A DNA stretch of 64,000 nucleotides from Amoebophrya sp. A120 (Eukaryota > Protista > Dinoflagellata): NCBI GenBank assembly GCA_905178155.1, contig CAJINV010000004.1:7034358-7098357 (forward strand), written 5' to 3'. A program made the translations under genes and the position numbers. The notes under the pieces are model-generated. The model saw only the letters and a list, made by a program, of their open reading frames with translations. It did no database searches and was not told the DNA's origin. Positions within the stretch are counted from its first letter, which is position 1. Each line of letters starts with the position of its first letter. Of the stretch, positions 10,752 through 52,600 are shown one piece after another.

Positions 10752-13700
10752 TTACGATATGCCCGCTCCTGAGCTTGATGCTGATTCTGATCCACCAGCA
10801 TTATCACCGTGAGCAGGGGCACTACTGCCAGCGGCCTCTTGTTGGCCACCACCTCCATCATTTGTTCCTCGCCCGTCATTGAAAAACACGGTCAGGGATC
10901 CATCTGCGTTTTGCCGAAAAGTAGCAGCTGGGGTAGTTGTATCATCCGCAAGAACTGCAAGCACTTCTTGCGGCTCCGCTGATGGCTGCCCACTTGAGCC
11001 CCCATTTTGTGCACCAGCAGCCAAAGCTGAGTCACTCGGTGCTGGTGCAGAAGCAACGTGTTCACCCGATCCTGTGCTATTCATCGTCAACTCGTGCTCC
11101 TCTGCTCCGTCGCCACTCCCAGTTTGCAGCAACTGCGGTGACCAGCCGGAGAGGTCCTGTGAGAGTTGCTCCACCTGACCAGTTATGAACTGCAAAAGTA
11201 TCGTACTCGTATAAATGCATTACAAATTTCCTCAGCATGAGAAATAAAATTTGTAATGCAGATTTACCTTAAAAAGAAGACTTGTAATGCATGATTGCAA
11301 TACGAGTACGATACTTTTGCACAGGATACCAGTTCCACTACTTGTAGTACCTCCACCCATCTCGTTCTGGCGCCGGAGCCATTCGGTTGTGCCGTCCGAG
11401 ATGTATTGCTGTTGCGGTGCTGGTGGTGCGGGGCTTGGGCCTGGCGATGGCGGTGGCTCGTCGCTGAAGTAGGGCATGTTATCGGGAAACGCGCCTTCTT
11501 GCTCACCATCTTCCTGTCGCACTTGTCCTCGTCGCGTACTTTGAATGCCTGCAGGATCACCGGTACCTCTGCTGCTGCTGTCCTCCGTGTTGGCATGCGG
11601 TAGAAGTGCCCTGCTCTGGCTTCCATCTTGCGGTTGCGGTGGTATGAAGGCATTTAGAAGACCTCCCCCTCGTCCCGGTTCTGCAGCTGGCGGGGCGAGG
11701 CCAAGAGCGGTATTCCGAAAGATGGAGGTTATGTCTCGTGATGATGATGAATTACGGCCTGGAACATCAAGTCCTCTTCCTCCTGCAAAGCGATCTCGTC
11801 TATCAGACGGATCCAGATCGTCCACATCATGCTGATTTCCTAGCCTTTCCTCGAAGTGGTTCCGTAAGTCGTCCACTTTCCTTCTTCGCTCGATATCCAC
11901 TATCATTAAGGTTGAGTCCACAAAGTCAATTTCTCCAAAGGCAAGATCTCTTGTGGTCACCAATTTCTCCATATGGATTGCAAAAGTGTCTGGGTCTGGA
12001 AGAATGGAAGGTCTGTCATGCTCTGCTAGCATGACTCCAAAGTCTGTCATGCTCGTTACCCAAAAGCCCCACCTTTCTGTCATGCCGAAACACGGTTTGT
12101 CATGCAGAATACGCAACACCTAGCAAGTCAGAAACTTGTCATGCTGAGCCATCACTTGTGGCGTCCTCAGGATTCGCCAAACAGCATCGCAAGTTTCCAG
12201 ACCCAGACATTTTTGCATTTGATAGTCCAGTACCGCTACCCAATCGATGTCGAGAACGGAAGTTGTGTCGCGGTCTTCAGCTCTTCCTTGGGTGGTGGAA
12301 GGATAGTTGCTCTTGATGTCGATCATCCGCTCCTGCCGTTCTCGCATGGCGTCCCTGAAATCCTGCAGTTCCATCATGTAAACCAATTCCGCGAGGAACT
12401 GGTACCCGTTTAGCGCGCGCTTGAACCGATATCCACAGGAAATTTCCCGCACACGTACAAATGCTGCTTCTCCATAACAAAACTTACTTGCCTTCAATCC
12501 TAGTCTAGCATGACAAGTTGGACACTGCAAGGTAGACCGAAGTTTGTCATGCATTTTGTGCATGTAGTACGGGAAACGATGAAAATCTGTACTGCATAAC
12601 CGCAAGTGCCGCTTCACAAACTCAGGCAGGTGCTCCTCCAGCCTTCTGTCTTCGAGATGCACGCAGCCCGCATGGATCAACATGTGCAGGCCCAGGCCGA
12701 AGGGCGAGGCGATCACGTTGCTATTTTCTCTTTCCGGTGGTGGGCCCCGAAGTCGCTGGCGCAGCTTCGTCGCCTCGTCGAATGCAATGGAAGCCTGATA
12801 ATTACTCTCGATATTTCTTGTGCGGCGACTATCATCCCTTAATATCGTTTCTGCCTGCAGCACCTGCTGCAGGACCTGCACTTCCGTTACCAGCCACAAT
12901 CGCAACGCGTCTCGCTTCCTTACCAGCCACTGTTTCTGCTTTTGCAACGTCCGAGTTCGCCCCTTTCTACTTTTGAAAGAGTTTCTACCGTGCGGCGCGG
13001 ACGCGGAGGAAGGTGGTCGTTTTGCGAAGATGTTGATGTTGCTGCCGTCTTTAGTTCGTGATCTTTTTGAAGATGCAGTTGTCGTAGATTTTGATTTTTT
13101 GTCTCTACTACTACTACTCGAGTTGTAGATAACTTCCGCTGGTGGCGTAGCGAACGGTGTTTTCCAAGGATCGGTCAACGAATCAACTTCTTCGAAAATT
13201 CCCTTCAGCTGCGTTTCTTCCATTTTGAAAATCCGCCGGGTCTCTTCTTCCGGAATGTCAAACAGATTGCGGCTCGAGAGCAGGCGGTTGACGGTACTAC
13301 TACCAGTCGTGAAGATGTCCTCCAACCCATGATCCTCTACCTCTTCGTCACTATCTTCTTCCTTCCCCAGTAGCTGCTGCCAGGCGTATTGCTGCCGTTT
13401 CTGGAGAAGCTGTCGCTTTCTTTCCTCTTCGGGGATTTGGTGGAGTTCTTCAAAACGCACTGACGGTGACTTCTTCATCCCTGTAGTTGCGCTGGAAGAT
13501 GAAGGATTCGAACCTCCTCCTTCTGCACCCTGATTCGGCATGTTGAGCTGCTCTGTGGACGCTGAAAATGATGGATCGTTGTCTTTGTCAGACGGAGTAT
13601 TGTACAAGATGTTGTAGTCCTTGCGCAATTCAACTTCGTATTTCCACAGTTCCGCTGCGATATCCAACACGCCCTTCCATCCCGGATCGGCGCCCCGGCC

Positions 13701-16700
13701 GTCGTTTTCGAATAGCTCACTGTTGCACAGCGCGTCGAGGCCTCTGTAGGGCGCCAGAGGCCCCATTCTGCTCGTGCTCGTCATCTCGTCCACAGGGTTG
13801 TGCGTAGCCGTGTTCGTCATCCTTCGATTTCTCACCACATTTTCCTCGTCTTGCTGTCTGGTCGGCGGCCAGGTTGGAAACGGATCAACGGGTCCAGGCG
13901 GTCGGAGACTTCTAGTCTGAGGCCGTTGCTCTTGCTGTATTTGAGCATTTGGCTTCGGCGTACTAGCCGGGATGAAATTGGCTGCCAGCTTTCCACCGGG
14001 CAGCGCCGCCGCTTTAGATGTCGGGGGGACAAAAGGAAAAGGAACGGTTTGTGCTGCCTGTTCAGGATTTGCAGCTCCTTGCAGACCATCTGCTTCCTGT
14101 GCACCCCGGGCGGCCTCTTCTTGCGCCGCGGCACGACTTGCAGCCGCCGCCGCGAGACTCGCGAAGCTCAGCGCTGGTGCTGTGGGCGCACTTTCCACTT
14201 GTTCTCCAGGGCTCGTCTTACCTGCAGGCTTGGGCTGCACCGCCGGCCACTTGGGCGTCGGCGTGGGTGGTCGAGGCGTTGGTTGGACAACTGCCGTGTG
14301 AAATCCTAGTGGTGCCAGCGGGCCAAGTTGGAATGGCGCTTGTTCCTGCAACACGACACTAGCAGAACTGCTACTACTGCCGCCTCGGGTAGGTGCACTT
14401 GCGCCATGAAAATGGTCCCCGCCAAAAACAGAACTCGTGTGGTCCCCACGACCCCTCCAGCCTCGGGGTAGGTCTTGCGACAACACCTGCCGCGGCCCAG
14501 GGGCGCCGTGGTGTGCGGGGCTGTTGGGCTCTTCGCTCCGTCGAGAAGCTGCAAACGAGGCAGGCAACCGGCGACGAGAGCGCGACGCCGGAGACCCAGA
14601 TCGCGAGGATGGAAAGATACTTGCCGCACTCGCACGCGCTTCCTCCTCCTCCGTGGTGTCAGCATTGCGACGCCCTCTAAATTCTTCTTCAGTGTTGTTA
14701 CCGTCTGGGCCGCGGGGCGTCGCTCTTGCAGCCGGTTCGTCGCCATCACTCGTAGTACCTCTTGTTCGCCGTGAATGATGTAGTTCATCGTGCCTACCAT
14801 CATTTTCAATAATTTCGCCACCACGAGATGGCACACGCAAAATCGGCTCGCTCGCGCTTCTGCGCATAATTCTCCTGCCGGAGCGACCTCTGGGTCCGGT
14901 AGGTGGATGAAGTAATGCTTCTTCCTCCTCTTCTTCCTCACTCACAGCGCTGCTCAGATCTAGCCTCGGCAGCATCGACTTCAACCTCGTCCCTAAGAAC
15001 CCTTCTTCATTTCCAGCACCGTGTCCGTGTGGCGGGAGCACAACATCCCGAATCATGGTCGACGTGTCTGTCCGCTTCTCGAAGGGCCAATCTTGCTATG
15101 ACAGTGCACAACTCCCCCTCCCCTCATTTGTGTAGCATGAACAGCAACACAAGTGCGGGCAAAGATGCAGCTTTTGCATGACAAATTACTAGAGGACTGT
15201 AGTGCTGTTTTGGATTCCGGAATTTGTCATGCAAACAGTGACACAAGGCAGCGACTGGGTTTGGGATTTTGCATGACAGATAAGGCGGGGGGGGAGCTGT
15301 GCACATTCATACTTGCTCGAGTCTCTCCGACACGACCAACTGCGCTTGATACCCCGTCCGGAGCTGCACCACCATGTCCTTATCCTGAGTAAAACCGTAC
15401 CCACGCCAGAGTTGTAATGCAGATTTGCAAAGACAGGAAGACTTGTAATGCGCATCCCCATGAGAGCCATTTCCAATCGTGTTTTGGAATTTGTGATGCT
15501 GTGAACAGGATGAGCAGATGAATCTGTGATGCGACTGCACTTGCTAACCTGCACTACACTTCATAGTGCAACTTGTCATGCGTGACTCACAAAACTCCTA
15601 GGTTTGTGTTGCAAAATCCTCATCCTGACTCTTGTGTGGGCACGTTTTTACTCAGGATAGTCCTTTCGCAGGAACCAACAGGTCCACCGTGGTTTCAAAA
15701 GCACCTCCGCTGCCTCGGACGTCCACCTTTCGGAAGTTCCCGCGGTCGGTTGTTTCCCCAAAAACGCAATCAAGTGCAAATGTGTCTGGGTCTGCAAGAT
15801 TCCGAGACTTGTCATGCAGATTTTCCATGATCCATGTCGTCTGGAATGCAGGACCTGGTATGACAGATTCCGCGAGATCCCTATGATCATGCCTATCCTG
15901 CATGAGAAACTTGTTCCTTACAACCTGGTCAAAAGTGGACAACTTTTCTTCGCATTCATGCAACACAGATTTTTGGTTTGCACGATCCAGAATTAGCATT
16001 ACAAGTTGCATCCTTCCAGACCCAGACATTTTTGCTATGCATAAACGCAATCTGCGATGTTTTCTCCTTCCAAACTGCGATCTGCTTGTCGTCCTCGAGT
16101 TTGATGTAGTTGAGAACAAACGCCTATCAAGTGCAAAAGTGTCTGGGTCTGGAAGAGTGTAGACTTGTCATGCAGATTTTCCATGACCCATGAGGTCTGG
16201 AGTGCGGGACTTAGCATGACAGACTCTGCGAGGTCTCTGCCATGCCTATTCTGCACAAGAAACTCCGTTCCAACTTGGTCAAAAGTGGACAGCTTTTGGC
16301 ACTGACGCAGCACAGATTTTTGCATGCTTCAGATTTACCAATGACAAGTTGCAATCTTCCAGACCCAGACATTTTTGCAATTCATAAAGCCAGCACCTTC
16401 AACCGCTTCAACCCAATGACAAACTCCCGCATTTTCGTGGAGTCCGAAACCTTGCTGGTAATTTCCATCGGCTTGCGCTTCTTCAACGCCGATTTACTGC
16501 TGACCACGTATCCTGTGCAAAAGTAGCGCACTCGTATTGCAATCATGCATTACAAATCTTTATCTTAAGGCAAATCCGCATTACAAATTTTATCTCTCAT
16601 GCTGAGGAAATTTGTAATGCATTTATACGAGTACGATACTTTTGCACAGGATACCACGCGCGCCGGAACGATTTGTGGTGCCTGGATTCTTGTGGTTCTA

Positions 16701-19700
16701 CTTGCTGGCGGGGGTGATGTTGTTGCTGTAGCTGTGGTAAGATTGGGAGGGATCGTTGGATCTACAGGTGGGACGACATCTTCCACGAGGCCCGTTGAAT
16801 ATGCCGCACCGTTGGTCGACATGTAGGACGAGACAGGGTCGTTTGAAGATGTTGACCCGGTAATTGTATTCTCTGAGACCACAGGACCTCCTCCTGCAGA
16901 GGACGAAGAACTACTGCCTCCAGTCTGCACGACTCCTGGTGCTACAGGGACAACATCTATCGGGTTGATGCCCGGTGGGGGAATCGCAAAAGAAGATGCG
17001 CCAACAGCTGGAGCGGCCTCGCGGGGGCCCGCGACGACTCTGTTAATCGTAGTGCTGGAAAATGAATTATGCAATTCCGGTCGGGCCGGAACCCGGTTAT
17101 TTCCGCCATTTGTTGATGTTCCCGGGGGTGTGGACGGCGCGGGCGAACTGGTGGAGGACGAGGGAATGTAGTAGTCTATCCACAAAAAAAACCCAGGCCC
17201 ATCCACTTTGTCATGCAAAAGTTGCATCAATTCCAGTGTTTGTCATGCAAAACATGGATGGGAATGAGTGTTTTTTCCTGGATATCCTCAGGGATGTTCG
17301 GATTGTTGATGTTGTTCACGACCCGCGGCGCATCAGCCTGCGCCACTGTTGCTGATCCACCTGTAGGTGGTGCAACTTCTTCGCTAGTGGACATGAAGTT
17401 CGCCGTTGTACTACTAGCAACCAGCCCGCCCTGTGCACCAGTGGCGGGGGTCTGCGCGTCAAGAAGTACTACAGGGGAGCCAACAACTTGCAGTGGGTCC
17501 CAAAGCTGCTGCTGCTGCTGCTGTTCCTGTGGAAGACCTTGTTGCGGTGGTACTCCTACCGGTAGTTCTTGATCATTTTCAAGCGGAGTTCCAGTTACGG
17601 CTGCGTCCTGCCCTTCCTCCACGTCCAGCTGAAACTCTTCCATGTCGGAGATCTCCGGATTTGCCACGGCGCTCCAATCGAATTGTTGAGCTTGACCAGC
17701 AACACCTCCTACTGGCGGAAAGGGTGGCGACTCGGCTACAGGTGCGGTGTGGGCGCCGGGGGCCAAAGGATCTTCTTCCTGGTCCTCGTCAACTTCTCGT
17801 GGAGGTGTCAACGGCGCAAGAACAAAAGGTGTTATCGGGGCAGCTGCTGCACCAGCGGAGGTGGGGAACAGGGTGCTGAGATCGAGTTGTGAAGAGGACT
17901 CGTCATGGTTTACTCCTTCTTGCGCCGGGGGAGAGATTGGGTCGTTGATGTCTGTTATGAACTCCTCGTCGGTGGGCGATGAAACAAGTGGCACAGCAGC
18001 GGATGTTGCTTGTGGCTGCTGTAGCTGCTCGTCGGGAAGTTGTGGAGTAGGAAGATGATCATGATCTGCAGCAGCGGCATAATCACCCTGATCATCCTCT
18101 ACATGCTGCTCCGGCTGTGGGGGAAGCAACGCGGCCTCGAAGATCGCGGTCGGCCTGCTTGACGTACTCGTGGTACTGGTGGAAATAAGCTCGTCCTGCC
18201 CATCTGCTCGCGGTCTACGTCCGGGTGCAGGTGGCGGATCTGCTCGCGGAGCCGGGGGAATTGGGATTAAGAAGTGAGGACTCTCAACAACAGCAGGTGC
18301 GCCAGCTGATGTTGCCCCAATTGTCATTCCTGTCGTTCCAGATGAAGATGAAGATCCGGAGCCTGCTTGAGTTTGTCCAGGCTCCAACATAGCGCTCGCG
18401 TTTTGACGCCGGATGGGTGGAGTAGGAGGTCCAAGTCCATCCGCCCTTCTTCTTGTCGAGAAGGCCGCTCCTTCTTCCCCATCTTCCATCGACGCGGCTT
18501 CTTGTTCTAGCTGGGGACCTAAGTTCCTCACGACATTCATTTCTTCATCTGTTAGTCGCATAGTTTGCGCTTGTTGGTTCGCGGTCGCCAGTGCTAAGGG
18601 GGATAGTTGCTGTTGGTCGTCTAGTATTGGTGTTCCAGCATCAGTCGTCGTCCCTGCAGCTGTTTGTTCTATTGGTCTTGGTGTTGTGCCATTACCAATA
18701 GGTTGTCCCGAGGATTCCTGCTCTGCATTCACTTGCTCCGCCAACCGTTGGGCCCGGTTACGCGCGCGCACGGTTGGAGGAATGGTGGAGGACGAAGATG
18801 ACATTACCGGAACGGGTGGGGGTGCAGTGGAGGCCGCGGACGGGACAACGAGACCGCTCGGCGGCCCCATGGCGGTGATCACTGTCAAATCCTCGGGACG
18901 CAGCGCGTCGTTCTCAAAGACGTGCTGCGCCAGGTGCTGCAAGTGCGCCTGCCCGCCCTGCTGCTGGACCAACTGCGTGATCCGGCGGAGGGGTTGGTCT
19001 TTCGGCTGCGGCCGGTTGCGGCTGTTCCGAGGTTCGGCACTCGTTGTTTTTGTGTAGTACAGCGATTTCCGTCGGTGCCAGTCGGTCAGGACCTTTTTCC
19101 GATATGCAATGCAAAAGTATCGTACTCGTATAAATGCATGACAAATTAGTCCAGCATTACAAATTAAGTTTGTACATGCTGAATTACCTTGACAAAGAAA
19201 TTTGTAATGCATAAACGCAATTCCTAGTCCTACGAGTACGACACTTTTGCACAGCATATCCGATTCCCCAGCGCCATCCGGGCGACGATGTGCAGCAAAT
19301 TCTCCGTGCGGTCCGCCGCGGACCGGTGCAGGAGAAATTGCGTCTTGTAGTGAACCAGCGGCCGGGTGGAAACGTCTTCATTTCTATCTTTCACCCCAAG
19401 CAGCTTCGACCGCTTCAGGGCCATCTGCTTGTGCTTCCGGCGAGGTTTGCCGTTCGTATTAGAACCCTCTTGGTCCTCGTCGTGTTCTTCCTGCCCGGTG
19501 AGAAATGCGCTGCCGTCGAAGTACTTGATCTCAAATTGCCGGTCTAGCGAAGTAGTAGATGTACTGTTATCAGGGTGGTGAGCATCTTCTTCACCTTCTT
19601 GGTTGCCGCTACCACTAAGCCGTGTGTTGTGGGTGAACAGCGGGGTGTTGGGTTCATTTGGGGACTCGGACAACATCAAAGGTACCCAGCGGCCGATCGG

Positions 19701-22700
19701 GGAGGTAGTAGTAGTCCTCGTAATTGATGTACTACTAGAAGGGGCTGCTCCTGAAGAAACTACGCCGGGCTGCACTGCAGCAGTAGGTCCAGCAGGGAGT
19801 AGACCTTCAGCTCCACTTGTGCTTGTGCGTGCGACTCTATCAGCAGCATTATTCCTTGCCCCAACTCTCTCCTCGTTGTTTTTCCTGTCCCACACACTCG
19901 GGTCGTATTTCGCGTCCCAAACCAAGACTCTCTCCCCGGGCTTGCGCTATGCATTGCAAAAGCATCGTACTCGTATGAATGCATTACAAGTTTCCTCAGC
20001 GTGATAAATAAAATTTGTGATGCTGGTTTCCCTTAAAAAAAAGATTTGTAACGCATGATTGCAACACGAATACGATTACTTTTGCACTGGATATGCGCAG
20101 TCCGTCGACAAGGTCGGTTTTCGTCAATAATTTCGCCAAGTAACGAAACGAATTATCGTTTCCGTCAAACGTATGGAAGTGTCAGGATCGAAATCGTCAG
20201 AGTTGAAATAATTTGTGATGCAAACAATCGATGCCAGTTAGCCCTACAGTTTGTAGTTGGCGCATGACAAAGTTTCCCCGTGGTCCTGGAAGCGAGTCTG
20301 TCATGCGGTTTAGGGCAAAAGAGCTGCCTTCTGTCATGCTAGTCAGAGGTCCACCTTTTGACGCTTACTAGGACTATAATCTGCCTCCCGTGCGTCCTCT
20401 GCAATAGACTCACTTTTTGCGTCGCATTTTATGCATGACAAATCATTTCAACTTTGACGATTTCAATCCTGACACTCCCATAAAACGCCGCCAATTCCAT
20501 GGCCGCCTGCAGCGGGCGCTCGAACTTCCTTGCCGCGTGGTATCGCAAGGAAAAATGACCGCTCCGAACTTGGGAGCATTTGTATTGCAAACCTTTCCAA
20601 AAGAAACACTCGCCCTCTTGCATCTAACAGCATCACAGATTTCCGATCGTGAATAGCAAAAATCTGTATTGCAAAAGATCCCAGCAAGAGCGGCGCTTGT
20701 TATGCAAGCGATGCTATATACGCCTAGACTCTGCATCAGAAAGATTCATACTCCTTTCATGCATGACAAAAACTTTTCATTTGGAAACTTCGCATCACAA
20801 ATTATTGCAACTTTGGGGGTGGGGGCACTTTTCCTTGTAGTACGTGGGGGTTCCGGTTCTCCGCGTCGTCGGCGGGGGTGCGGTCTTTTTGCTGTTTGTG
20901 CAACGACAGCGTGTATTGCAGGTCGGGGATCCTGGCGTTGTTTAACTTAAAATCCTCGCCGCCCTGGCCGAATTGAAACACCTCTTTCAACACTTGCCCC
21001 ATCGAATTCATAATGGCGTAGTCGTAGAAGAAGTCCGGGGAGAAGTCTAGGATGTCAGTGATATGGGAGTGTCAGGATTGAAATCGTCAAAGTGAAAGTT
21101 AAAATAGTTTGTCATGCATAAAATGCAAGGCATGAAGTGGCTGTCTTGCCGGGATGGCAAGTGAGGCCAATTGTGAGCCTGTTTAGGGGCTGAAATAGAG
21201 CTGCTAAAGTAGCATGACAAAAGTAGTCTTCTGTTCCCAAACAGCATGACAAGTCGGATTTTGGTGCTTGGAAAATTTGTCATGCGCCGCTTGATAAGTG
21301 GGCTTCCGACTGGTATCGGTTTTATGCATGGCAAATCCTTTCAACTTTCTCCATTTCAAACCTGACGCTTTCATAGGTGACCGCTTTTCGGTAATTCCCC
21401 TTTTATCCAGTGCAAAAACGTCGCCACCCCATAGTCAAGATGGGAATCTAGCAACACAAATCCAGAAGCTTTGGGAGTTAAGCATGACAAGTTCCTCATT
21501 GTATTGTAGTGCAGTTTAGCAAGTACAGCCGCAACACAAATCCACCTAGTCATCCTGTTTATAGCATTACAAAGTCCGACACATGACTGGAAATGCCTCT
21601 CATGGGGATGCACATTACAAATCTTCCTGTGACTGCCAATCTGCATGACAACTATGGGGTGGAGACGTTTTTACACGGGATACCTTTCTCAGCTTTTTCT
21701 TCTCCTCGTTCGGCTTCAAAACGTTGTCTTGATAGTAGTCCAGAATCGTGTCACACAACTCCGTTTGCTTGTGCAGAAGAAAACCGTGCCAGACCGTGGG
21801 CAAGGCCGAGTGCGCGTCCACGTTCAGGCCTAAAATGTTTTGGCTCGAATATTCCGTCAGGCGATTAAACCGTCTTTCCGGCACTGCGAAGTCGGTGAAG
21901 CGCTCCGCAAGCTCAAACTTGAACAAACCAAGCAGGGCGCGCTCGTTCGGGAGGGTTTTCTTGGTCGGGTCGTGGATATTTGATATTTTCTCTGTTTGTG
22001 TTTCTGCTCTGGATGCTGGTGGAGTTTGCTTCTCTTGCTCCCCGTGCTTCTGCTGCGTCCTCGATTCTACTGGTTTCATATTCGCCGCTGGGCTGAAAAG
22101 TAATTCTCCCGCTGTTGACGACGCTCCTTCTGCTCGCTTGGCATTGGCTGCTGGGGCAGTAGCTGCAGAACCTGAAGAACCTGCATTATCACTTCTGGAT
22201 GTTGGTTCTTCCCACCTCGTGGTCAACATCTCCGTGGCTGCGATTGCGTTGGCTTTCCACGCTCTCAAATACTTCTTCAGCTCCTGCTGTTCATCTGCAG
22301 TGCCAGGACCTGCTGCTGTTCTTGAGCCAGGTCGTGTTATTAGCCGCGCGTTGGGGAGCTGACAGCCCGGCGCGTCCGGCGTGAACGCGTTAAGAAAAAC
22401 TGAACGCCAGTACTGGTGCGTGTGGGTGATGAACTTCTTGTTCCTTTTGCCGCTTCTCTCATCGTTCTTCTTTTTGCCTCTGCTGTTAACATAAGTCCGG
22501 CTCACCACTCCCTGCAAGATCGCGAGTCTTTCCTCCTTCTTCAAGCGTTCCCTTCCCGCTTCCGCCAGCAGCTCTAGCTCGTTTATCGTACGAAAAAATT
22601 GTTTCACTGTAAGGATTTCGCAAGTTTTGCATCACAAGTTTGTTCTACATGATAGAGAAGATTTACCATGCGAGGGGCCTAAGGGAAAACGCAGCGAAAA

Positions 22701-37700: not shown

Positions 37701-40700
37701 TACTTCCTTGTTGTGGTATGGATTGCAAAAGTATCGCGTACCGTAGCAGTCATGCATTACAAGCTTTTTCCTTATAGGTAAATCCGCAATACAAATTTCA
37801 TAGTCTCATGCTGAGTAAATTTGTCATGCGATTTATACGAACCAGTACGATACTTCTGCAATGCATATGTGGGTTTGAAAAGCAATCGCGATATCTTCTT
37901 TGAAGAACCCCCGCATCGAAGCGATCCGGTTGGCGAGGATGGTGAGAGCATGCTCGTGTTTCAGAAACTCCGCTGCTGCGGCGAAGGTTAGGGCGTTTTT
38001 GTAGGTGCGAGAGGAAAGGGCCAAAGCGTTATTTTCGTATTCCGCTTGGAGAAGCGTCCCGATGTGTTGAAGGATGCGCTCCTGTCGGTCTTGTTCGTGG
38101 TCCCGCTTAGTAGGTGTACTTTTTGCTACATCGTCTCGTTGCACAAAAAGAGGGGCTGCAAATGGTAGCTGTAGTTGCGCTGGTTCTTCTTGTAAGAACC
38201 CCGGCTGTACATCATTAACCGGAGCTGCAACTACATCTGCTGCGCCGGCTCTAGCCTGCTGCGCACCTGGAAGATGCCTTTTGTTCCACGACCTGCGCGC
38301 CGTGGCGAATATGTTGACTTTTCTGTTTTGCGCCTTGAAGGGACAAAGGTCGTCGCCAGAAGACTTTAACAACTCGGCGTCAGAGTTACTAGAACTTCTC
38401 TTGCGCGGCCTGTTGGCTTTGGACCCAAAAACGAAAACGTCTTTCGGTTGTTCTTCGCACGTTTTCACAGTGCTTATTTCCACTTCCAGCTTCTCCTCGT
38501 CCTTCCCATCAATACCGCCAAGTTGCGCAACCTTGGTTTTCAACTTTTTCTTCGGCACAGCTTCTCTCGCAGGGCATGATTCAACCGCCCCTGTTTGTGC
38601 TTCGGGGAAGACCTGTGCGGAGGAACATGAACTTGAACCTGTGGCGGAACTAGAAGACGATGCGCCTCCGCTGCTCAATTGGCAAATGGCAGCTCCAGAG
38701 GAAGACGAAGCTGCAGTGGTGGCACCTTGACCAAAAACTACCGCAGTACTCCCAGTGGATGAAGCAGAAGTTGTCCTCTGTGCCAGGACCTTAGCCTTCT
38801 CTTCGCGTCGCAGCAGTGAAGATTTTTTCATCTTCTGCCACCTCCTGGTCGCAGAGGAACTACCTTGTTGTGCAACCGGACCGCCGGTAGCAGCGTTCTG
38901 TAGTCCCGGTCCTTGCGCAGAAGCTTTAGCCGGACCGGCTCCTTTCGAGCCAAACTTTTTTTTGTTAACGATCCCGGTCTTTCTTCTCCGCGCCTTCTTG
39001 CTCTTCAACGACCTTAGATTCGCCTCGTCCTTTCTATTCCCTGGAGCAGATCCTGCCGAGCACTGCTGTCTATAGCCCGAAGTCGTAATTGTATCCTGCT
39101 CTACTTTCATCTTCTGCTGCTGACTACTACTTCCGCTACCCCAAATACTGCTCGCTTCTTCCAAAACTCGTTTCTGTGCGCTTGAGGTTTTACTACTTGC
39201 GGCCCGTTTTATTCTTTCGGCCTCCGCGTCTGCGTCTGCCTGCACCTCCTTGTCGTATTTCTTTATCGCAGTCTCTTTCATTTTCCCGATTTCCTGCTTC
39301 AACCTGCAGACTGCCTGTCTCCCCTCCAGCAGCCCCACGACCCAGTTCATCGTTTCGTCTTGGTACACCCGCTCCGTTTTCGCGCCAAACGTCTCCTTAC
39401 CCGCGTACGGCCGCACGCTGTGCTCCGGATAGGCGGATCGGCCGCAGCCGAAATTCCCGGTGCGGGCGAAAAGTTTTTCCAGCCGGGAAGCGGTGCGTGG
39501 TGCTGTGATGTTGGCAGTTTATTTTTTGTGATGTTGTGTCTCAACTACACGTCGTCGATGTCGCTCATCATTCAAGAATAAACATAAAGAGCGACGTACT
39601 GGCACTAGCATTGTGTCACTTTCACACTTGTAATTGTAAATCAGTTTGAAAATAGTAATTTTCTCTTCTTGAAAGCTATTGACGATGCCTCACGACCTTG
39701 CAAGAACACAACCAGTACCTGTGAAGAACGTCGACGTTGACCCCGCGGCACTACTTATTCCCCCTCTGTTCGTCTGCAGCACCTCGTCCCTTCTCGCCAG
39801 CCGCCGACTGGTATGAGAGTGCACAACTCCCCCTCCCCCTCATTTGTCATGCAAAACTCCAGATTCAAATGCTTCCCTGTGGCACTGTTTGCATCACAGA
39901 TTTCGGAAGCCCAAACAGTACTACACTGGGCGCATGAATTTGTCATGCACAGGCTCCACGTGTGGTGGTGTTTGTATTGCTGTTCATGCAACACAAATGA
40001 GGCAGAGGGGGAGTTGTGCACTCTGATAACTGGCGCAGGGTCCTCCGTGATTCAAAACAACGGATATTCCCTGAAAATCATACCATCCCCACCAAATTTG
40101 TCGTGAAGTGAAGTGAAGTTCTCTTTGTCATGCAAAACATGTAATAAAAGGTGTGCTTGTCATGCAAAAAGTGGATGGGGATGGTCAATTTTCAGGGAAT
40201 AACGGAGCTTGGCGGTAGAGAGGTGAACGGATTCTGGTTGAACGGAGTAGAAGATGTTGACCAAAAACTACCGCTACTGGTCTCAGCCTATGCAACATTG
40301 CAAAAGTACCTTCCTACAGATTGCAGTCCTACATGACAAATCTAGCTCTCTACCTGATTCTGAATGACAAACTGCGTTTTTGTTTTTGGTAAAATTTGTC
40401 ATGCAATCAATACCTTAGTACAATACTTTTGCAATGCATACAGCCATGACTGATGATGTGCTGTCAAACCTATCAAAGTCCGTCGGCGTCATCATCTCCG
40501 GGCCTGCTGCCCACGCTGGTACGGTGTTTATTTTCTTTGCCTTGTTTGTTGTAGTTCCATATGCTTTCTTCTTGGGTGGAACTTCAGTCGATGGACTACT
40601 CGAAGTTGCAGTCGCAGCAGCCTCCACGGCGTCTAGAAACGCAAACGAATCTACCGAAGCCAGCCAGAAGTAAAACACCGGTCGCTTCGGATTCACATCC

Positions 40701-46700: not shown

Positions 46701-48287
46701 GGACAGAGACGCAGACGTCGAACCCGAAACATTGCTAATAGCCTCACGCAGCTCCGTCGACGATCTCCTTCTAGCCTCGTCCTCTACCACATCCGTCGGA
46801 CGAAGGTCCGGGCTGGGTGGCGGGACAGAGGTTTGCGGTTGCAGCTGGTTCAGAACGTCGCCGAGATTGTCGATCGCGGACAAAGCCTCGTCTACGGCGG
46901 CTAGGGTGGCAGTTTGCAGGGCCGACGGGGGCGGTCGTGGTTCTACTAGTGTAGATGAAGCACCTCCGATAATGTCCGATGAACTACCGGCGCTGGTACT
47001 TCTTGTTTCTGGCACGACGCCGACGTTACCTTCCGCGCGTCTTTGCTGTGGGCTCGAGGCACTATCGGCGCCGTCGATGTTAGGATCGCCTTCTTCCTGC
47101 AGCTCGGGGGGACCTGTAATATTCCTGCTGGGTCCACCTCTGGCTCTGGGGTCCGACGACCCACTGCTGGAAGAAAATTGTCGGTACATGGTAGTATCAC
47201 CGGCGCGCCCCCGGCGGAACGCGTATTGTCCCTCCGGGTGCCGGGCAATTCCCTGCGAAGGTTGTTGTACGGCCGTGGCCTCCGACGAAGCATCTGCGGC
47301 ACGACCTGGGGCTTGCGGGACGAAGACCCGTCCGCGGGCAGTGGAAAACGTGCTTGCTTGTTCTCTATCAAGAACTCCCGTCTCGTCGTCCTGCTGTAGA
47401 GGTTCAGAGGGTACTTCTTGTACGAGCAGCACAGGATGAGGAGCAGCTTCGCTCTCATCTTCAGCGCGTGCTGCTGCAGCTGCAGGCGAAAAAACTACAG
47501 GGACATTTGTTCCCTCTGCGGCTGCGGATGGCTGCTGCACGTCCTGAACGGCGTGGGCTTCGGGAAGGTCATGCAGTATGGAAGCGTCAGGTTTGAAATC
47601 GTCAAAGTTGAAATGATTTGTAATGCATAAAATGCATGACCCGCGGCACGTGTGTTGCAGAGCAGGTAAGTGAGGCAGATTGTAAGCCTGTTTGGGGCTA
47701 CAGCTCGAGCTGCTAAAGTAGCATGAGAAAATCGCTTTTTTTTACCTAAACAGCATGACAAACTAGATTTAGGGACCACCGAAATTTGTCATGCGCCACT
47801 TGGAAACTGGGTTCCAACTGGCATCCATTTTATGCATGACAAATTATTTCAACTTTGTCGATTTCAACTCTGACACATCCATATGCAGGAGCTGCGAAGT
47901 AGAGGACTCTGCCTCAGGCATATGAAGAATCCCCAAGGAGGATGAAGATGAAGATGCACCTTGTTGCCCTCCCGCCTGACTTTGTGGTCCACTGGCGGCT
48001 GCTGCAGCATCTTGATCTTCTTCCACTCCGTTTCTTTCTGCCACGATTTCTGCATCACCAGCGTTCCCTTCACGAAGATGACCCCCGAGACTGGATCGGA
48101 TTCCTGAAACCCCTCTGATGTAATTGCAAGGAGCTCCTCCTGTCAGGAATGAACTCAATACTAAATCGTGTTGAAATAGTATCGTCTGAGCAGCATGGTG
48201 AAGCGATGCTGCAAGAATGAGCAGAACCCAGGAGGTCGTCGATGTGGAGGCTGTTCTGCACCTGCAAGATGAAACATTCGACCGCAT
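10752..48287 (-). CDS. Giant hypothetical protein (~8,500 aa, ~53 exons), mostly low-complexity S/A/P/Q/E-rich tracts between short globular-looking segments, hydrophobic N-terminal stretch
   Basis: From ATG 48287 (MRSNVSS..WVLLILAASLHHA) one frame is kept across 44 TAT..ATA elements and 8 GT-AG introns; each junction phase was checked by hand and the residual length is divisible by 3. The 3' end is either TAA at 10752 or continues via a GTAAGT donor at 10755. No domain confidently recognised. Confidence 0.72.
11184..11328. mobile_element. Introner family A, 145 nt
   Basis: TIRs; TSD CCAGT; frame restored; opposite orientation to 16509. Confidence 0.93.
11972..12224. mobile_element. Introner family B, 253 nt
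   Basis: TIRs; flanks CTCCA/GTCCA; frame restored. Confidence 0.9.
12430..12598. mobile_element. Introner family K, 169 nt, stop-free and in frame
   Basis: TATCCACAGGAAATTTCCCGCAC...GTACGGGAAA..TGTACTGCATA; flanks ACCGA/ACCGC; similar to 26441. Confidence 0.82.
15097..15311. mobile_element. Introner family C (TIR TATGAnAGTGCACAACTCCCCCTCCCC), 215 nt
   Basis: TIRs; TSD CTTGC; frame restored. Confidence 0.92.
15381..15659. mobile_element. Introner family E (TIR TATCCTGAGTAAAA.CGT.CCCAC), 279 nt
   Basis: TIRs; TSD GTCCT; frame restored. Confidence 0.92.
15768..16043. mobile_element. Introner family B, 276 nt (left end AAT)
   Basis: TIRs; TSD AACGC; frame restored. Confidence 0.9.
16125..16386. 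mobile_element. Introner family B, 262 nt
   Basis: TIRs; flanks ACGCC/AAGCC; frame restored. Confidence 0.9.
16509..16653. mobile_element. Introner family A, 145 nt
   Basis: TIRs; TSD CCACG; frame restored. Confidence 0.93.
17177..17284. mobile_element. Introner family H, 108 nt
   Basis: TATCCACAAAAAAA..CCCATCCA...TGGATGGG..TTTTTTCCTGGATA; flanks TAGTC/TCCTC; frame restored. Confidence 0.8.
19103..19258. mobile_element. Introner family A, 156 nt
   Basis: TIRs; TSD TCCGA; frame restored. Confidence 0.92.
19948..20093. mobile_element. Introner family A, 146 nt
   Basis: TIRs; TSD TGCGC; frame restored. Confidence 0.92.
20172..20482. mobile_element. Introner family D (TIR TATGGAAGTGTCAGGATTGAAATCGTCAAAGTTGAAAT), 311 nt
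   Basis: Long TIRs; TSD AAACG; frame restored; opposite orientation to the other D copies. Confidence 0.92.
20541..20842. mobile_element. Introner family J (single copy here), 302 nt
   Basis: TATCGCAAGGAAAAATG...CACTTTTCCTTGTAGTA; TSD CGTGG; frame restored. Confidence 0.85.
21062..21375. mobile_element. Introner family D, 314 nt
   Basis: TIRs; flanks AGTGA/GGTGA; frame restored. Confidence 0.9.
21404..21682. mobile_element. Introner family E, 279 nt
   Basis: TIRs; TSD CCTTT; frame restored; opposite orientation to 15381 and 27881. Confidence 0.92.
22584..22792. mobile_element. Introner family F, 209 nt
   Basis: TATCGTACGAAAAAA...TTCTGGGGATA; TSD TCGTT; frame restored. Confidence 0.9.
24097..24195 (-). 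other. Canonical GT-AG intron, 99 nt
   Basis: GTATGA...TAGCAG; joins MIPLL to IDRLASEQ. Confidence 0.7.
24311..24562. mobile_element. Introner family B, 252 nt
   Basis: TIRs; TSD AACTG; frame restored. Confidence 0.92.
24644..24871. mobile_element. Introner family C, 228 nt
   Basis: TIRs; TSD TTTCG; frame restored. Confidence 0.92.
26224..26376. mobile_element. Introner family A, 153 nt
   Basis: TIRs; TSD TAAAC; frame restored. Confidence 0.92.
26441..26616. mobile_element. Introner family K, 176 nt
   Basis: TATCCAGAGTAAATTTCC..TTCCCGCACA...TGTGCGGGAAATTTGTGTTGCATA; flanks CCGAC/TCGAC; frame restored. Confidence 0.85.
26675..26830. mobile_element. Introner family A, 156 nt (right end GTA)
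   Basis: TIRs; TSD CGCAT; frame restored. Confidence 0.9.
27053..27359. mobile_element. Introner family D, 307 nt
   Basis: TIRs; TSD ACCGC; frame restored. Confidence 0.92.
27683..27820. mobile_element. Introner family A, 138 nt
   Basis: TIRs; TSD ACTGG; frame restored. Confidence 0.9.
27881..28159. mobile_element. Introner family E, 279 nt
   Basis: TIRs; TSD CAGCC; frame restored. Confidence 0.92.
28663..29417. mobile_element. Introner family B, expanded copy (755 nt) with two internal insertions
   Basis: Perfect 29-nt TIR; TSD TGCGG; frame restored; extra segments ~28723-29040 and 29115-29270. Confidence 0.9.
29480..29701. mobile_element. Introner family C, 222 nt
   Basis: TIRs; TSD AGCTC; frame restored. 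Confidence 0.92.
30284..30437. mobile_element. Introner family A, 154 nt
   Basis: TIRs; TSD ATCCC; frame restored. Confidence 0.92.
30525..30674. mobile_element. Introner family A, 150 nt
   Basis: TIRs; TSD TGTTC; frame restored. Confidence 0.92.
30734..30896. mobile_element. Introner family A, 163 nt
   Basis: TIRs; flanks TTCCG/TGCCG; frame restored. Confidence 0.88.
32788..33052. mobile_element. Introner family B, 265 nt
   Basis: TIRs; TSD TGGTC; frame restored. Confidence 0.92.
34079..34837. mobile_element. GC-rich non-autonomous TIR element with 9-bp TSD (MULE-like), forming GT-AG intron 34075-34836
   Basis: TIR GG..GTGTGAATCACCTCCCCAC at both ends; TSD TTGTGCTTC (34070-34078, 34838-34846); many subterminal CACCTCCCC/GGGGAGGTG repeats; donor GT in TIR and acceptor AG in TSD give an in-frame splice. 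Confidence 0.85.
35339..35507. mobile_element. Introner family G (TIR TATCAnAnnAAAAAGTGTTAACGTTA), 169 nt
   Basis: TIRs; TSD CTGAA; frame restored; homologous to 41676. Confidence 0.92.
35582..35739. mobile_element. Introner family A, 158 nt
   Basis: TIRs; TSD TCAAG; frame restored. Confidence 0.92.
35842..35868. repeat. (CAT)9 coding microsatellite (poly-Asp on minus strand)
   Basis: Direct read; translates to a D run in the giant gene. Confidence 0.9.
36501..36647. mobile_element. Introner family A, 147 nt
   Basis: TIRs; TSD CCTCG; frame restored. Confidence 0.92.
36718..37038. mobile_element. Introner family I (single copy here), 321 nt
   Basis: TATCAAAATGAAAAATCCCC...GGGGATTTTTCACTTTGATA; TSD AAGTG; frame restored. 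Confidence 0.9.
37717..37867. mobile_element. Introner family A, 151 nt
   Basis: TIRs; TSD TGTGG; frame restored. Confidence 0.92.
39503..39718 (-). other. Canonical GT-AG intron, 216 nt
   Basis: GTACTG...CACAG; joins STFFT to APRTASRL in frame. Confidence 0.75.
39812..40028. mobile_element. Introner family C, 217 nt
   Basis: TIRs; TSD ACTGG; frame restored; opposite orientation to the other C copies. Confidence 0.92.
40065..40201. mobile_element. Introner family H, 137 nt
   Basis: TATTCCCTGAAAAT..ACCATCCCCA...TGGGGATGGTCAATTTTCAGGGAATA; TSD ACGGA; frame restored. Confidence 0.9.
40289..40440. mobile_element. Introner family A (diverged), 152 nt
   Basis: TIRs; TSD CAGCC; frame restored. 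Confidence 0.88.
40763..40936 (-). other. Probable GT-AG intron (174 nt, stop-free) built on a decayed introner (40775-40932)
   Basis: Right end AAATTTGTATTGCATA, decayed left end TTGTGAATACAAATTT, flanks ACACG/ACACC; the TSD rule shifts frame but GTGTTA...TACAG keeps it. Confidence 0.6.
41676..41839. mobile_element. Introner family G, 164 nt
   Basis: TIRs; TSD ATCGC; frame restored. Confidence 0.92.
42150..42314. mobile_element. Introner family A, 165 nt
   Basis: TIRs; TSD GCCAG; frame restored. Confidence 0.92.
42747..42912 (-). other. Canonical GT-AG intron, 166 nt
   Basis: GTATGA...TACAG; joins PGLAT to FLERR. Confidence 0.7.
43959..44214. mobile_element. Introner family B, 256 nt
   Basis: TIRs; TSD CTCGC; frame restored. 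Confidence 0.9.
44422..44619 (-). other. Canonical GT-AG intron, 198 nt
   Basis: GTATGG...CTGACCAAG; phase 2 on both sides. Confidence 0.55.
45064..45356 (-). other. Canonical GT-AG intron, 293 nt
   Basis: GTATTT...CTGAC..TAAAG; phase 2 on both sides. Confidence 0.6.
45570..45714 (-). other. Canonical GT-AG intron, 145 nt
   Basis: GTAACA...TTTAG; joins STPHR to FDST. Confidence 0.75.
45776..46038. mobile_element. Introner family B, 263 nt
   Basis: TIRs; TSD AATCG; frame restored. Confidence 0.92.
46225..46449. mobile_element. Introner family K, 225 nt, with tandemly duplicated right end plus TSD
   Basis: Left TCAGA|TGTCC; right TGTATTGCATA|TCAGA ends at both 46404 and 46449; frame restored with either. 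Confidence 0.8.
47577..47883. mobile_element. Introner family D, 307 nt
   Basis: TIRs; TSD TGCAG; frame restored. Confidence 0.92.
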
Positions 48288-48555
48288 TCTGGATGGTTTC
48301 TTTGCAGTTCCTAGGAGGAGGAACTTTTACAACACAAGGGTGTTTTGCGCTTGGGTAGCGTTTTTAGCACGATCATGAAACATGTTTAATGCAAGAATTG
48401 TACATGTACGTCGACGAGGTCTTGGAATCAAATGAATGACACCCGACGTCGTGTGCCACATAGATTTGGATTTCCATACCTCAGTCTCCGTGCAGTGACG
48501 TAAAAATATTTATTCGTTAATTTTTCCACGACGTTTGCCTTTACTTTCACGGGAG

Positions 48556-48575
48556 CACACACACACACACACACA
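48556..48575. repeat. (CA)10 microsatellite upstream of the giant gene
   Basis: Direct read. Confidence 0.9.
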
Positions 48576-49688
48576 TCGCAGCTTCTATCCTTCTAACCAT
48601 ACTACAAGATGCAAAATATGATCATGCACTTTCAATAGCAATCCAAGAGCTTCGATTGGCTACGACTTGAGTCAAGTCTGCAAGATGCTCGTGATCACGT
48701 GACAGAAGAACCTTTACTCGCATACACGAAGACGACCGCAATAGCGCATAAGAGCGATCATCATCTCACCAAAAAAAAAAGGGCAACAAGCGATATCTAC
48801 TTTTACATGTGATGCAAAAATTCAAAAATGATGTTGATGTTCTTGGACACACGACGCACACCCAGACAGACCATCTGACGGTGGGCTGCAAGTAGACCTG
48901 AATAGCTGAGTGGGGTCGTTTGATCTTTTTGCGCAGATGAACAAACAAAGGGTCGTCGAAAAACTTCGCGTATGAACGGTGTGCTGCTGGTGCTGGCCTG
49001 CGATCTTTCATAACGGCAACGGATAGAGAGCTCGACGTTCTCTACTTTTGTCTACTCATGTACGTGTTTTATGCGTATTCAGACGGCTGAACGGCCACAT
49101 GGACCATGATCTTTATCGAAAGAAAACCGCGCTCGCGAATAAAGCCACCAAACGGAACTCAGTCGTGCATATTCAGTACGTGATCTGTTCTTCGCTGTAG
49201 TTGACATCGCACGCTGCACAAGGAAGAACCACGAAAAAGATGACACATGTTCAGGATAGAGCAGACCGCAGTAGGAGTAGTTCTGCAGCAATTGGAATTA
49301 TTCAGCTTCGCCTTCGGAGTTTCGACACGCACGCATCAGGATCTTCTTGATCCTCATTTTCATTCAGCTCTTGCAGCACCATAGCATTCACAAATCACAA
49401 TAGCAGACGAAGATCTCTACTAGCCTAGCACTAGACGTGGGCTAGGTTTAGGTAATAGAGGAACATCGCGGCCGTGGACCGCAGCCCATTTTTCAAACGG
49501 ACATACGACCCCAGAGCCGCCCACGGCAAACGTCACTGAATTACAGGACTGTATTTTCGTTTTTTCTCTTCGAACATCGGCAGTTAACATGAAATTCAAA
49601 TGTCGCGGCGCTCGTTCAAAGGAAAAAGTAATTCTTTTGCTGAGGAGCATGTGCATGCTCTAATTGTTCGTCATACTAGCGGCCAGAG

Positions 49689-52600
49689 CTATTTCGAAGA
49701 CGGTCCGCCTCCGTTCGCAGTAGTCCCTTGCTTTTGGTTGTTCGACGCCGAAGTTGTTCCAGCGGGAGTTTTCTTTTTGTAGTACTGATAGCTGTTATTT
49801 CTTTCGCCGCTCTGTCTTTTCTGCTCTTGTTGACCATTTGCATTTCTTTCCCGGGTATGAACTGCAAAAGTATCGCACTCGTATAAATGCATTACAAAAA
49901 CTCAGCATGAAAAATGAAATTTGTAATGCTGATTTGCCTTCATCAGAAAAAAAATTTGTGATGCAAGACTTGCATTTATACGAGTACGATACTTTTGCAC
50001 AGGATACCGGGCTGGAGGTTGGTAAGAGCTGTCTTTGCTGTCCTTGTTTGCTCCTGCGCCACTCTCGTTTATGCATTGCAAATTTGTCTGGGTCTTGAAA
50101 GGTTGAACTTGTATTGCGTGTCCAGGACTCCAGAAAAATCTGTATTGCATAAAAGCAAGAAAAGCGCCACAAATTGTTTGTCATGAAAAAGCACAGTTTC
50201 TAATGCGCACTAAGCATGAGAGACAAAGCGTTTGAAAAATTTGTCATGCAATACTGCACTTAGAGACGCACTCACTCATGACTATTCAGCATTACAGGTT
50301 TCCAGACCCAGACATACTTGCATTTCATATCGTTAGCGCTGGAGCAGTTGTGGAACTCCTCTGATTCGTCTGCGTGGTCCGCTGGAATCATGGGTTGTTC
50401 CACCTGATTTCTATCTTTCTTTGCTCCGCCGGCTTTTTTATTTCCAGTCGTACTTGTTGAACTTGTTGTATCAGCGGTAGCAGCTCCACCTGATGCGCCG
50501 CCCGGCTTACTGTTACTTTCCACTTGATCCAAATTTAAACAACTCCTCACTATTGCCGGCATCACGGCTCTCGGAATCGCCTTGTTGTGGAGAATACTGA
50601 ATCCGAGCTCGCACATCTCCAATACATTGACGGTGACAACCGCACTGTTGGCGGGGTTGACCCACTGATTGGAATAGCTTTGTTGCTCCGAGCCTGCTGT
50701 AGTAGAAGTACTGTTGTTCATTTTTCCGCCACCATTCGCCTTAGAAGCACCAGAGGAAGATTTCTGTTGCTGATCTGGGAGGTTGCTAGAAGAGGAACTG
50801 CTAGATGAGCTACTACTTGCTTTGCTGTTCCCCACCAACCCGTACCCCTCCACGCCGAACTTGCTCAGCCCCTCTTGCTGTTTGTTGTTCATTTTGTGCA
50901 CCTCTTTCTGTTCGTACTGCAGAAAAAAATCAAACCGCAAAGCCGGAATCTCGTCGTCTAACGTTTGGGTGCGGACCTGGGATAGATGCGAAATAGGTTT
51001 TATTTTTCGTAAGATGGAGATGCATGACCATGACGTAACATTTACTCTTATGAGCCAGGTGGACCAATTTTTTTTGGAAAAAAATTCAGAATTGCATATA
51101 ATTTCTGCTGGTCCAAAGATGGCACCATGATGCTGGCTCTTTACGTAGTACAAGAGCTGCGTCAACTTGATACTACAAATCGCTATCCAAACTCCTATAT
51201 AGTACCCAATCCAGCAGTTCTCGCGCCGTCTCCTTGCCCATTTCGATCGCCTTGTCCAGAGCCTTATCAACTGCAAAGATGTCTAGGTCTGGAAGAGTCG
51301 GGGCTTGTCAAGCACATTTTGCATGACCCGTGAGGTCTGTGATGCTGGTGCTAGCAACACAGATTTTTTGGGAGCCTCTTGATGCTAATTACGCAGGAGA
51401 AATAACGCCCTCTCCGCGTGCCAAGAGCTGAGTCCTCGTGCTGCTCATGCAACACAGATATTTTTAGACTCCGCAGACAGCATTACAAGTTCCACTCTTC
51501 CAGACCCAGACACATTTGCAATCCATAAGCCTCCTTGTCATTGTGGAACCCGGTGGCCAACACCTGGTCCTTGGTCAAATAGTATCCTGTGCAAAAGCAT
51601 CGTACTCGTATTGCAATCATGCATTACAAATTCTTTTCTTAAGGTCAATCCGCATTACAAATTTTATTTCTCATGCTGAGGAAATTTGTAATGCCTTTAT
51701 ACGAGTACGATACTTTTGCAGTTCATAAATAGTTGAAGTCGCCGAATTCCTGGTTCGCTTTGATCTTGCCAAATTTCGTGAACATGACGAACTCGCACTT
51801 GTTCTCCACAAAATACAGCCGCATCTCCGTCGCGTGGTGAACGAATTCTTGCACGATGACGTGGTCCAGCGTGTGTGCCTGCCCCACAAAGTTGGACGTG
51901 ATCTCAATCTGCTGGGTCAGGTCGTTCAGAGCGGAGACCAGGTTGTAGTTCCCGACGTCTTATCCTGTGCAAAAGCATCGTACTCGTACAAATCGCTGTC
52001 ATGCATTACAAATCCCTTTCTTTGGGGGAATCCGCATTACAAATTCCATTTCTAATGCTGAGGAAATTTGTAATGCTATTTATACTAGTACGATACTTTT
52101 GCAATGCATACGTCTTCCCGCCACAGCTTCACGTCCAACGCCTCCCAACTGTAGCCCAGCTTCTATGGCGTTCTCAAACGTTACATTCTCAGCTGTTACA
52201 TGGATTTGTAATGCAAGAACAGCAATAGTGAAAGTGGCATTATTGCAGCTTTCGCATCACAGATTTTCCACAGATTTAGATGCTGTTTAGCCCTTCGAAG
52301 ATTTGTCATGCTGCCCACCTTGATCAAGTGGAGGCTGATGGCAATTTTGCATGACAAATTCATGTAACAGTTGAGAATGTAACAGTTGAGAACTCCATAG
52401 CTTCCCGACGCCCTGCACGATCTTCTTGGCTGTGATATTTTTACATTTATGTGGTGTTTATATTTGTTGGGTTGATGGGAAAATAATTCGCGATGCTGCA
52501 TTTATTGCATTTCATACCACCTGATGCCCCCTCCGCCGTGGGTGTGAAAGGAAAATCCGTCTTGCACGACGATCACATCTGCAACAAGTGCATCATGGCC

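Follow-up and report, generated by a model that had tools for sequence, protein, structure and literature searches.

Orientation-independent introners in Amoebophrya sp. A120 and a likely fixed register for their removal

The window analysed here is a stretch of 64,000 nt from contig CAJINV010000004.1 of the dinoflagellate Amoebophrya sp. A120 (GenBank assembly GCA_905178155.1, positions 7,034,358 to 7,098,357 of the forward strand). Its genes are interrupted by introners, repeated elements with inverted-repeat ends. Members of the same family are missing from likely transcripts in either orientation relative to the gene, and the cuts that remove the introners are probably placed by a set distance from each element end, not by GT-AG signals. 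The host genes lie on the minus strand, as a preliminary description of this DNA had stated: two published A120 proteins map there, and minus-strand frames emerge once the elements are removed. These proteins, P0001 and P0009, match window exons with 100 % identity and are sourced as Amoebophrya sp. A120. The elements are the A120 introners of Farhat et al. 2021 (PMC7789003) and were thus already known.

Genes and introners of the window

Elements were sought as TAT…ATA inverted repeats between flanking duplications, by a finder for which a target site duplication (TSD) was obligatory. Five of the 62 hits were discarded as likely false and two elements were added by hand, giving a catalogue of 59 elements in eight families. 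A 28-base end of family A was also used as a seed in a public collection, and this recovered 130 loci, of which 129 (390,742 bases, from another assembly) with 373 unique elements entered the analysis. Exclusion of 87 elements for which the gene strand was uncalled left 286, of which 61 have no family; with the window this makes 345 copies. The strand-calling method was correct for 57 of the 59 window elements and left the other two uncalled. The seed skews family A in the locus set.

Contig runs X1 to X4 come from a single sample and their nature was guessed as RNA (hence likely RNA); joints were read from them within 10900-22700. The main features are as follows, all on the minus strand (-), with skips counted over these four runs.

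10752..24099 (-): host frame of 3,232 aa with 16 introners, after removal of each element plus 5 nt
24190..34080 (-): host frame of 2,140 aa with 14 introners, after removal; P0013 match across 24311 and 24644
49692..54408 (-): host gene of P0001 (Amoebophrya sp. A120), 4 GT-AG introns and 6 introners
848..9108 (-): host gene of P0009 (ankyrin and TRAF zinc finger), 7 GT-AG introns and 7 introners
11184..11328 (-): family A introner, orientation 1; 150-nt skip in 4/4 runs; no slide gives G(T/C/A)-AG; predicted intron 11329 to 11180 (GT..TG)
16509..16653 (-): family A introner, orientation 2; 150-nt skip in 4/4 runs; predicted intron 16654 to 16505 (GT..TG)
51583..51727 (-): family A introner, orientation 2; crossed by published protein P0001
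49856..50006 (-): family A introner, orientation 1, in the same gene as 51583; crossed by P0001
19103..19258 (-): family A introner, orientation 1; 161-nt skip in 1/4 runs
19948..20093 (-): family A introner, orientation 1; 151-nt skip in 1/4 runs
15381..15659 (-): family E introner, orientation 1; 284-nt skip in 4/4 runs; GA..AG slide possible
21404..21682 (-): family E introner, orientation 2; 284-nt skip in 3/4 runs, short side 22 nt; the shared register gives GT..AG
27881..28159 (-): family E introner, orientation 1; frame only
15097..15311 (-): family C introner, orientation 1; 220-nt skip in 4/4 runs
29480..29701 (-): family C introner, orientation 1; frame only
39812..40028 (-): family C introner, orientation 2; weak frame support
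20172..20482 (-): family D introner, orientation 2; required for the 3,232-aa frame; no joint listed
21062..21375 (-): family D introner, orientation 1; 319-nt skip in 3/4 runs; imperfect TSD that places the cut 1 nt or more ahead of TAT
27053..27359 (-): family D introner, orientation 1; frame only
47577..47883 (-): family D introner, orientation 1; frame only
3331..3591 (-): family B introner, orientation 2; crossed by published protein P0009
16125..16386 (-): family B introner, orientation 1; 267-nt skip in 4/4 runs; imperfect TSD that places the cut no more than 1 nt ahead of TAT
15768..16043 (-): family B introner with 3' end ATT, yet removed; 281-nt skip in 4/4 runs
11972..12224 (-): family B2 introner; 258-nt skip in 4/4 runs; imperfect TSD that places the cut 1 nt or more ahead of TAT
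12430..12598 (-): introner; 174-nt skip in 4/4 runs; imperfect TSD that places the cut no more than 4 nt ahead of TAT
17177..17284 (-): short introner; 113-nt skip in 4/4 runs; imperfect TSD that places the cut 0 or 1 nt ahead of TAT

Rfam gave 0 matches, and a protein search with the 2,140-aa gene gave no match. In a representative search, P0013 matched the 2,140-aa frame across elements 24311 and 24644, without reaching an imperfect TSD.

Orientation, insertion and removal from transcripts

The preliminary description named copies that are reverse complements of each other, and its coordinates and lengths are correct. The family A members at 11184-11328, 16509-16653 and 51583-51727 are 145 nt each, and the E copies 21404, 15381 and 27881 are 279 nt each. 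Lengths in the other families are 217, 215 and 222 nt for C (39812, 15097 and 29480), 311 nt for D 20172 and 307 nt for D 27053 and 47577, and 261 and 262 nt for B (3331 and 16125). All the named pairs are opposite in orientation, the reverse-complement alignment beating the same-sense alignment for each (11184 and 51583, 95.2 % against 74.5 %; 3331 and 16125, 85.9 % against 70.6 %). Orientation within family A could be assigned with no conflict across 144 edges, and the window copies split 10 to 9. Both orientations are present in the 129 loci for A, B, B2, C, D, E, G, H and K. An orientation bias of family A is not claimed, because the seed skews its locus counts (77 to 47 overall, but 13 to 27 among copies found without the seed).

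The elements have the features of a miniature inverted-repeat transposable element, namely a terminal inverted repeat (TIR), a fixed TSD, no coding capacity and random orientation. With regard to an autonomous partner carrying a transposase, five elements across the window and the 129 loci exceed 400 bp, and the longest stop-free stretch is 209 aa. One 755-bp element (28663-29417), with B-type ends, a perfect 20-base repeat, a 5-bp duplication and a longest stop-free stretch of 205 aa, is possibly a nested or deleted derivative.

The flanks show T at -13 with G at -11 on the upstream side of the duplication, or C at +11 with A at +13 on its downstream side, and the two signals are anti-correlated within a site (both at 59 sites, 88 expected, p 1e-10). 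Among 59 window and 285 locus elements, 122 of 344 sites have RCRA beginning at a distance of 10 bp from the 5-bp duplication, on one side only, compared with 6-26 at other distances. This motif occurs in copies of family A as well as in non-A copies, and has no visible tie to element orientation. It suggests targeting at the DNA level, independent of the direction of insertion, and may mark a transposase or host factor that positions insertion.

The rule that removal of an element plus 5 nt restores the frame in both orientations also proved sound. Its application gives minus-strand frames of 3,232, 2,140 and 1,240 aa, and removal of +0, +3, +4 or +6 instead of +5 gives frames of <1,000 aa. 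When 12 named copies were treated singly, retention or +4/+6 removal shortened the frame in 12/12, with weak support for C 39812 (705 aa against 681-685). The finding that some stop-free frame spans each element was rejected as evidence, as 59/59 elements pass but so do 52-58/59 in controls. Two degenerate family A-like copies lie outside the catalogue of 59: removal of 6021-6187 with 5 nt agrees with P0009, and removal of 40289-40440 with 5 nt lengthens the 42868 frame. A long intron at 34075-34836 (minus strand) has inverted-repeat ends, internal TTTAGGG-like repeats and a longer flanking direct repeat. Removal would be in frame with GT-AG boundaries (762 nt) and equally at the introner register (759 nt), and it would fuse the 1,240-aa and 2,140-aa frames.

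Thirteen joints were found in the X1-X4 contigs, and in each an element plus 5 nt is missing. Both orientations of A (11184, 19103 and 19948 one way, 16509 the other) and of E (15381 and 21404) are absent from the likely-RNA contigs, and one X1 contig spans A 11184 and A 16509 together with both skipped. The claim that an element is removable in either orientation is borne out for A and E. Family A is the clean case, because its four joints have no G(T/A)-AG option, whereas E 21404 has a GT-AG and E 15381 a GA-AG option. Published proteins also cross both orientations of A within single genes (49856 and 51583/51961; 3129 and 1525). In family B, 3331 is removed in a published protein and 16125 in contigs. 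These proteins were possibly built on the same RNA data, and so are not independent of the contigs. D 20172 has no joint in the contig list, and depth is low there. Contigs of run X5 continue from exons into elements. From the raw-read runs X9 and X10, 23 and 6 reads were placed, with no joints among them.

Cut register, intron ends and hairpin

Because perfect duplications blur the position of the cut, only the joints with imperfect TSDs are informative (5/13). A single offset is compatible with all 13 joints, namely N|TAT…ATA NNNN, with the cut 1 nt before TAT and 4 nt after ATA, and as a parsimony result this is the likely register. It is what the present analysis adds to the published picture. 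Cases at the protein level agree with an offset of 1 (1525 needs at most 2, 6021-6187 at least 1). A codon test on 32 single-mismatch TSDs from the loci disfavours offsets 4 and 5, mostly via one stop codon, and does not separate offsets 0-3. The T at +2 in all nine top A120 motifs of Table S4 in PMC7789003 is compatible with this register, but is not used as support because the choice of aligner is unclear.

Given this register, TAT or TAC occupies intron positions +2 to +4 in 342/345 copies. Canonical introns of two genes begin with GTA in 11/11 and with GTAY in 9/11 cases. TAT is equally well kept at both element ends. No GT/GC/GA-AG option exists at any equivalent slide in 311/345 copies, including 11/13 contig joints. 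Conventional boundaries are thus unneeded, and a conventional acceptor belonging to each orientation fails as a general rule. The cut is not symmetric, however, lying 1 nt before the element and 4 nt after it. G is slightly over-represented at +1 (33 % against 28 %, p 0.04), as is AG at the 3' end (11.9 % against 7.7 %, p 0.006). Among intron phases, 0 is favoured: the 222 locus copies divide 99:57:66 (p 0.001) and the 51 window copies 23:15:13. C is depleted at position 5 of the window TSDs (p 0.001), but this failed to recur in the loci (p 0.056).

Three family A introns, with both orientations represented, form strong hairpins when folded (z -8.9 to -10.1). In two of the three, the first 8 nt are unpaired, and repeat positions 4, 6 and 7 of family A seldom pair (28, 24 and 17 of 143), so that a donor would stay accessible. 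General selection on the stem at the RNA level was not found over 20 positions in 286 copies (G-U 176, A-C 171), and A-C exceeds G-U, 45 to 26, at the first 15 stem positions in the window. The sense strand is not more stable than the antisense strand (80/143 and 96/195), no transcription-strand mutation bias was found (A>G 707, T>C 718), and pairing between flanking exons was not found. Position 21 from each end of family A is polar with respect to the transcript, with 5' T and 3' G in 36 copies and 5' C and 3' A in 7. This bias, unique among positions, is 7 to 0 in the window alone and 10 to 4 (not significant) in unseeded loci, and is partly due to the seed.

The motif GCATNACA is specific to the elements, with 169 hits in 13,042 element bases and 1 in 28,058 exonic bases. 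It occurs about equally on both strands (479 and 431), and its location varies by family. A role for this two-way internal motif as a splice signal, as had been proposed, is not supported: it is absent from 6/11 canonical introns, and one-way or absent in 106/345 elements. As a branch point it was rejected as unshown, on the same absence from canonical introns, its variable position and its near equality on the two strands. GCATNACA or its complement is present in the remaining five GT-AG introns (8403-8039, 7865-7681, 7378-6778, 6509-6352 and 5487-5376), which may be introners that have decayed.

Mechanism and comparison with known systems

Orientation independence by itself is not new among introners and is not diagnostic of the machinery. 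The spliceosomal introners of Polarella and Aureococcus are published as creating introns both ways, in Polarella with GT/GC/GA donors. The preliminary description took two-way removal to imply a non-spliceosomal route, but this does not follow. Reversing an element with a terminal inverted repeat leaves its 5' and 3' sequence unchanged, so that polar signals within the repeat function in both orientations. The related proposal of symmetric recognition survives in part: removal is independent of orientation and of conventional boundaries, TAT stands at both ends and hairpins form, but the endonuclease/ligase step is unsupported.

Our preferred explanation, at about even odds, is that a relaxed U2-type spliceosome removes the introners by measuring from the hairpin ends. 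A DNA transposase would insert the elements in random orientation and, with the same repeat at both ends, the transcript would always begin N-UAU and finish AUA-NNNN. N-UAU would be taken as the GUAY donor of this organism with the G dispensable, the hairpin would bring the intron ends together, and the 3' cut would be placed by distance, with AG not used. This reading is favoured by the donor match, the geometry of Polarella class 12, a spliceosome without a detected U1 small nuclear RNA (snRNA) and the precedent of Fritillaria. A120 retains nearly all spliceosomal proteins together with U2, U4, U5 and U6, and U1 snRNA was not detected (PMC7789003). In Fritillaria, TIR-derived non-GT-AG introns are reported to depend on the U2 spliceosome for their removal (PMC13326754).

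Several observations weigh against a U2 spliceosome. GT-AG stands at the register in just 12/345 copies, and neither G at +1 nor AG is required. The AG excess comes second among 34 positions, and the window by itself does not show it. The first/last pairs that spliceosomes prefer show no excess (G-G 33/286, A-C 20/286; about 36 and 20 expected). A branch-point consensus was not found, and 56/345 copies have no TTT run close to the 3' end. A mixed register (1 one way, 4 the other way) is a less likely alternative: it is disfavoured by 4/4 discriminating cases, which chance would give about 1 time in 16. The likely-RNA contigs represent one sample.

A second, non-spliceosomal system, either an endonuclease with a ligase or a novel ribonucleoprotein, might instead read the hairpin and cut at spacers of 1 nt (5') and 4 nt (3'), which amounts to the idea of the preliminary description plus the register; we regard this as unlikely, though a serious contender. 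It would account for the acceptance of any base at +1 and at the last two positions, the lack of a preferred first/last pair, the strong hairpins in both orientations and the excess of U-G over C-A at position 21 of family A (36 to 7). The nonconventional introns of Euglena share the logic and further count against the U2 reading, with N3-CDG…CHG-N5 ends whose spacer lengths have been tested (PMC12501133), and they are reported as circles with no lariats (review PMC11282704). Against such a system, the register sets TAT precisely at the TAY of canonical donors, G-U shows no general excess over A-C and sense folds are no better than antisense ones. No such enzyme turned up, although none was searched for. 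That a hairpin-end ruler free of lariats and of the spliceosome, ignoring both dinucleotides, evolved independently of the genome-wide system of Euglena is a tentative idea that we rather doubt.

It is distinctly improbable that the register follows element orientation or family, with machinery of either kind and no single transcript-polar ruler. The family A contig joints are all perfect TSDs that do not pin the register, the legend of Fig. 3 in PMC7789003 describes splice sites as variable relative to the hairpin, and the codon test disfavoured just two offsets. However, an offset of at least 2 is never needed, 4/4 discriminating cases are low and 3/3 mismatches at position 5 need at least 1.

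Splicing of each copy by ordinary GT/GC/GA-AG signals from the target duplication, as in Polarella and Aureococcus, is very improbable. Such options occur in E 21404 and 15381 and in 34/345 copies, compared with 11 on the opposite strand (a difference confounded by coding-strand composition), but the 311 copies without one, among them all four family A joints, refute it as a general rule; it may apply to about one copy in ten. Excision from DNA, with the element-free contigs representing DNA, is scarcely credible: the RNA nature of X1-X4 is a guess and the contig-covered stretch contains no canonical intron without a TSD, but the X5 contigs run from exons into elements, the published introns are based on RNA-seq (PMC7789003) and four joints with imperfect TSDs keep the copy that, by position, one register predicts.

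More than 60 % of A120 introns are non-canonical, with their borders left unresolved (PMC7789003). If the fixed register is true, many annotated A120 borders would be corrected, exact ends would be available for mapping of lariats and circles, and a minimal reporter test would be defined. It would also explain the spread of a transposon through coding sequence, as removal is clean without any demand on target sequence or orientation. If the hairpin ruler operated without the spliceosome, it would be a second genome-wide cis-splicing machine, with an insertion at any coding site removed without trace in either orientation.

The elements agree with those of Farhat et al. in the organism and in forming non-GT-AG introns. 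The published inverted repeat (TAT, seven variable bases, a run of A) is recovered, with TAT in 57/59 elements and A at positions 11-13 in 50, 50 and 53 of 59; the A run is absent from families C and D. The published direct repeat of 3-5 nt corresponds to a 5-bp TSD in all 59 elements, imperfect in 10, the TSD being imposed by the finder. Removal from transcripts and repeated families are likewise seen (13 likely-RNA joints, eight window families). The accessible text of PMC7789003 leaves orientation undiscussed and terms the intron border unknown. Neither orientation independence nor a fixed register for A120 was found in the literature examined, although Fig. 3 and S19-S25 of that study may show part of this. 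Automated calls for A120 families differ between families (PMC12130899).

The Euglena introns resemble A120 introners in their inverted-repeat ends, direct repeats that blur the borders and, probably, fixed spacers that are shorter at the 5' than the 3' end (PMC12501133). They belong to an unrelated lineage and have a CAG/CTG core, spacers of 3 and 5-6 nt and a purine exon start, whereas A120 has TAT/ATA and likely spacers of 1 and 4 nt; the N-TAT…ATA-N4 ends do not match the N3-CDG…CHG-N5-6 code. The Euglena authors suggest non-spliceosomal factors.

Polarella classes make introns in either orientation with GT/GC/GA donors (10.1101/2020.10.14.339549), a pattern said to resemble Aureococcus (review PMC10228655). 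The introners of both are TIR transposons and require GT/GC/GA and AG, so target sites are limited, whereas the A120 copies require neither. Polarella class 12, with a 5-nt TSD (NNAGG), has the same boundary geometry as A120 but is one-way. Fritillaria borealis is alike in having TIR-derived non-GT-AG introns on a genome scale, but these show an AG-AC/AT end bias and U1 snRNA is kept, whereas A120 introners have almost unconstrained ends, and no U1 snRNA was detected in this organism. Compared with U2 introns, A120 introners mostly lack GT/GC/GA-AG ends and show no excess of isosteric first/last pairs, and at the likely register they share the donor-like sequence at +2 to +4.

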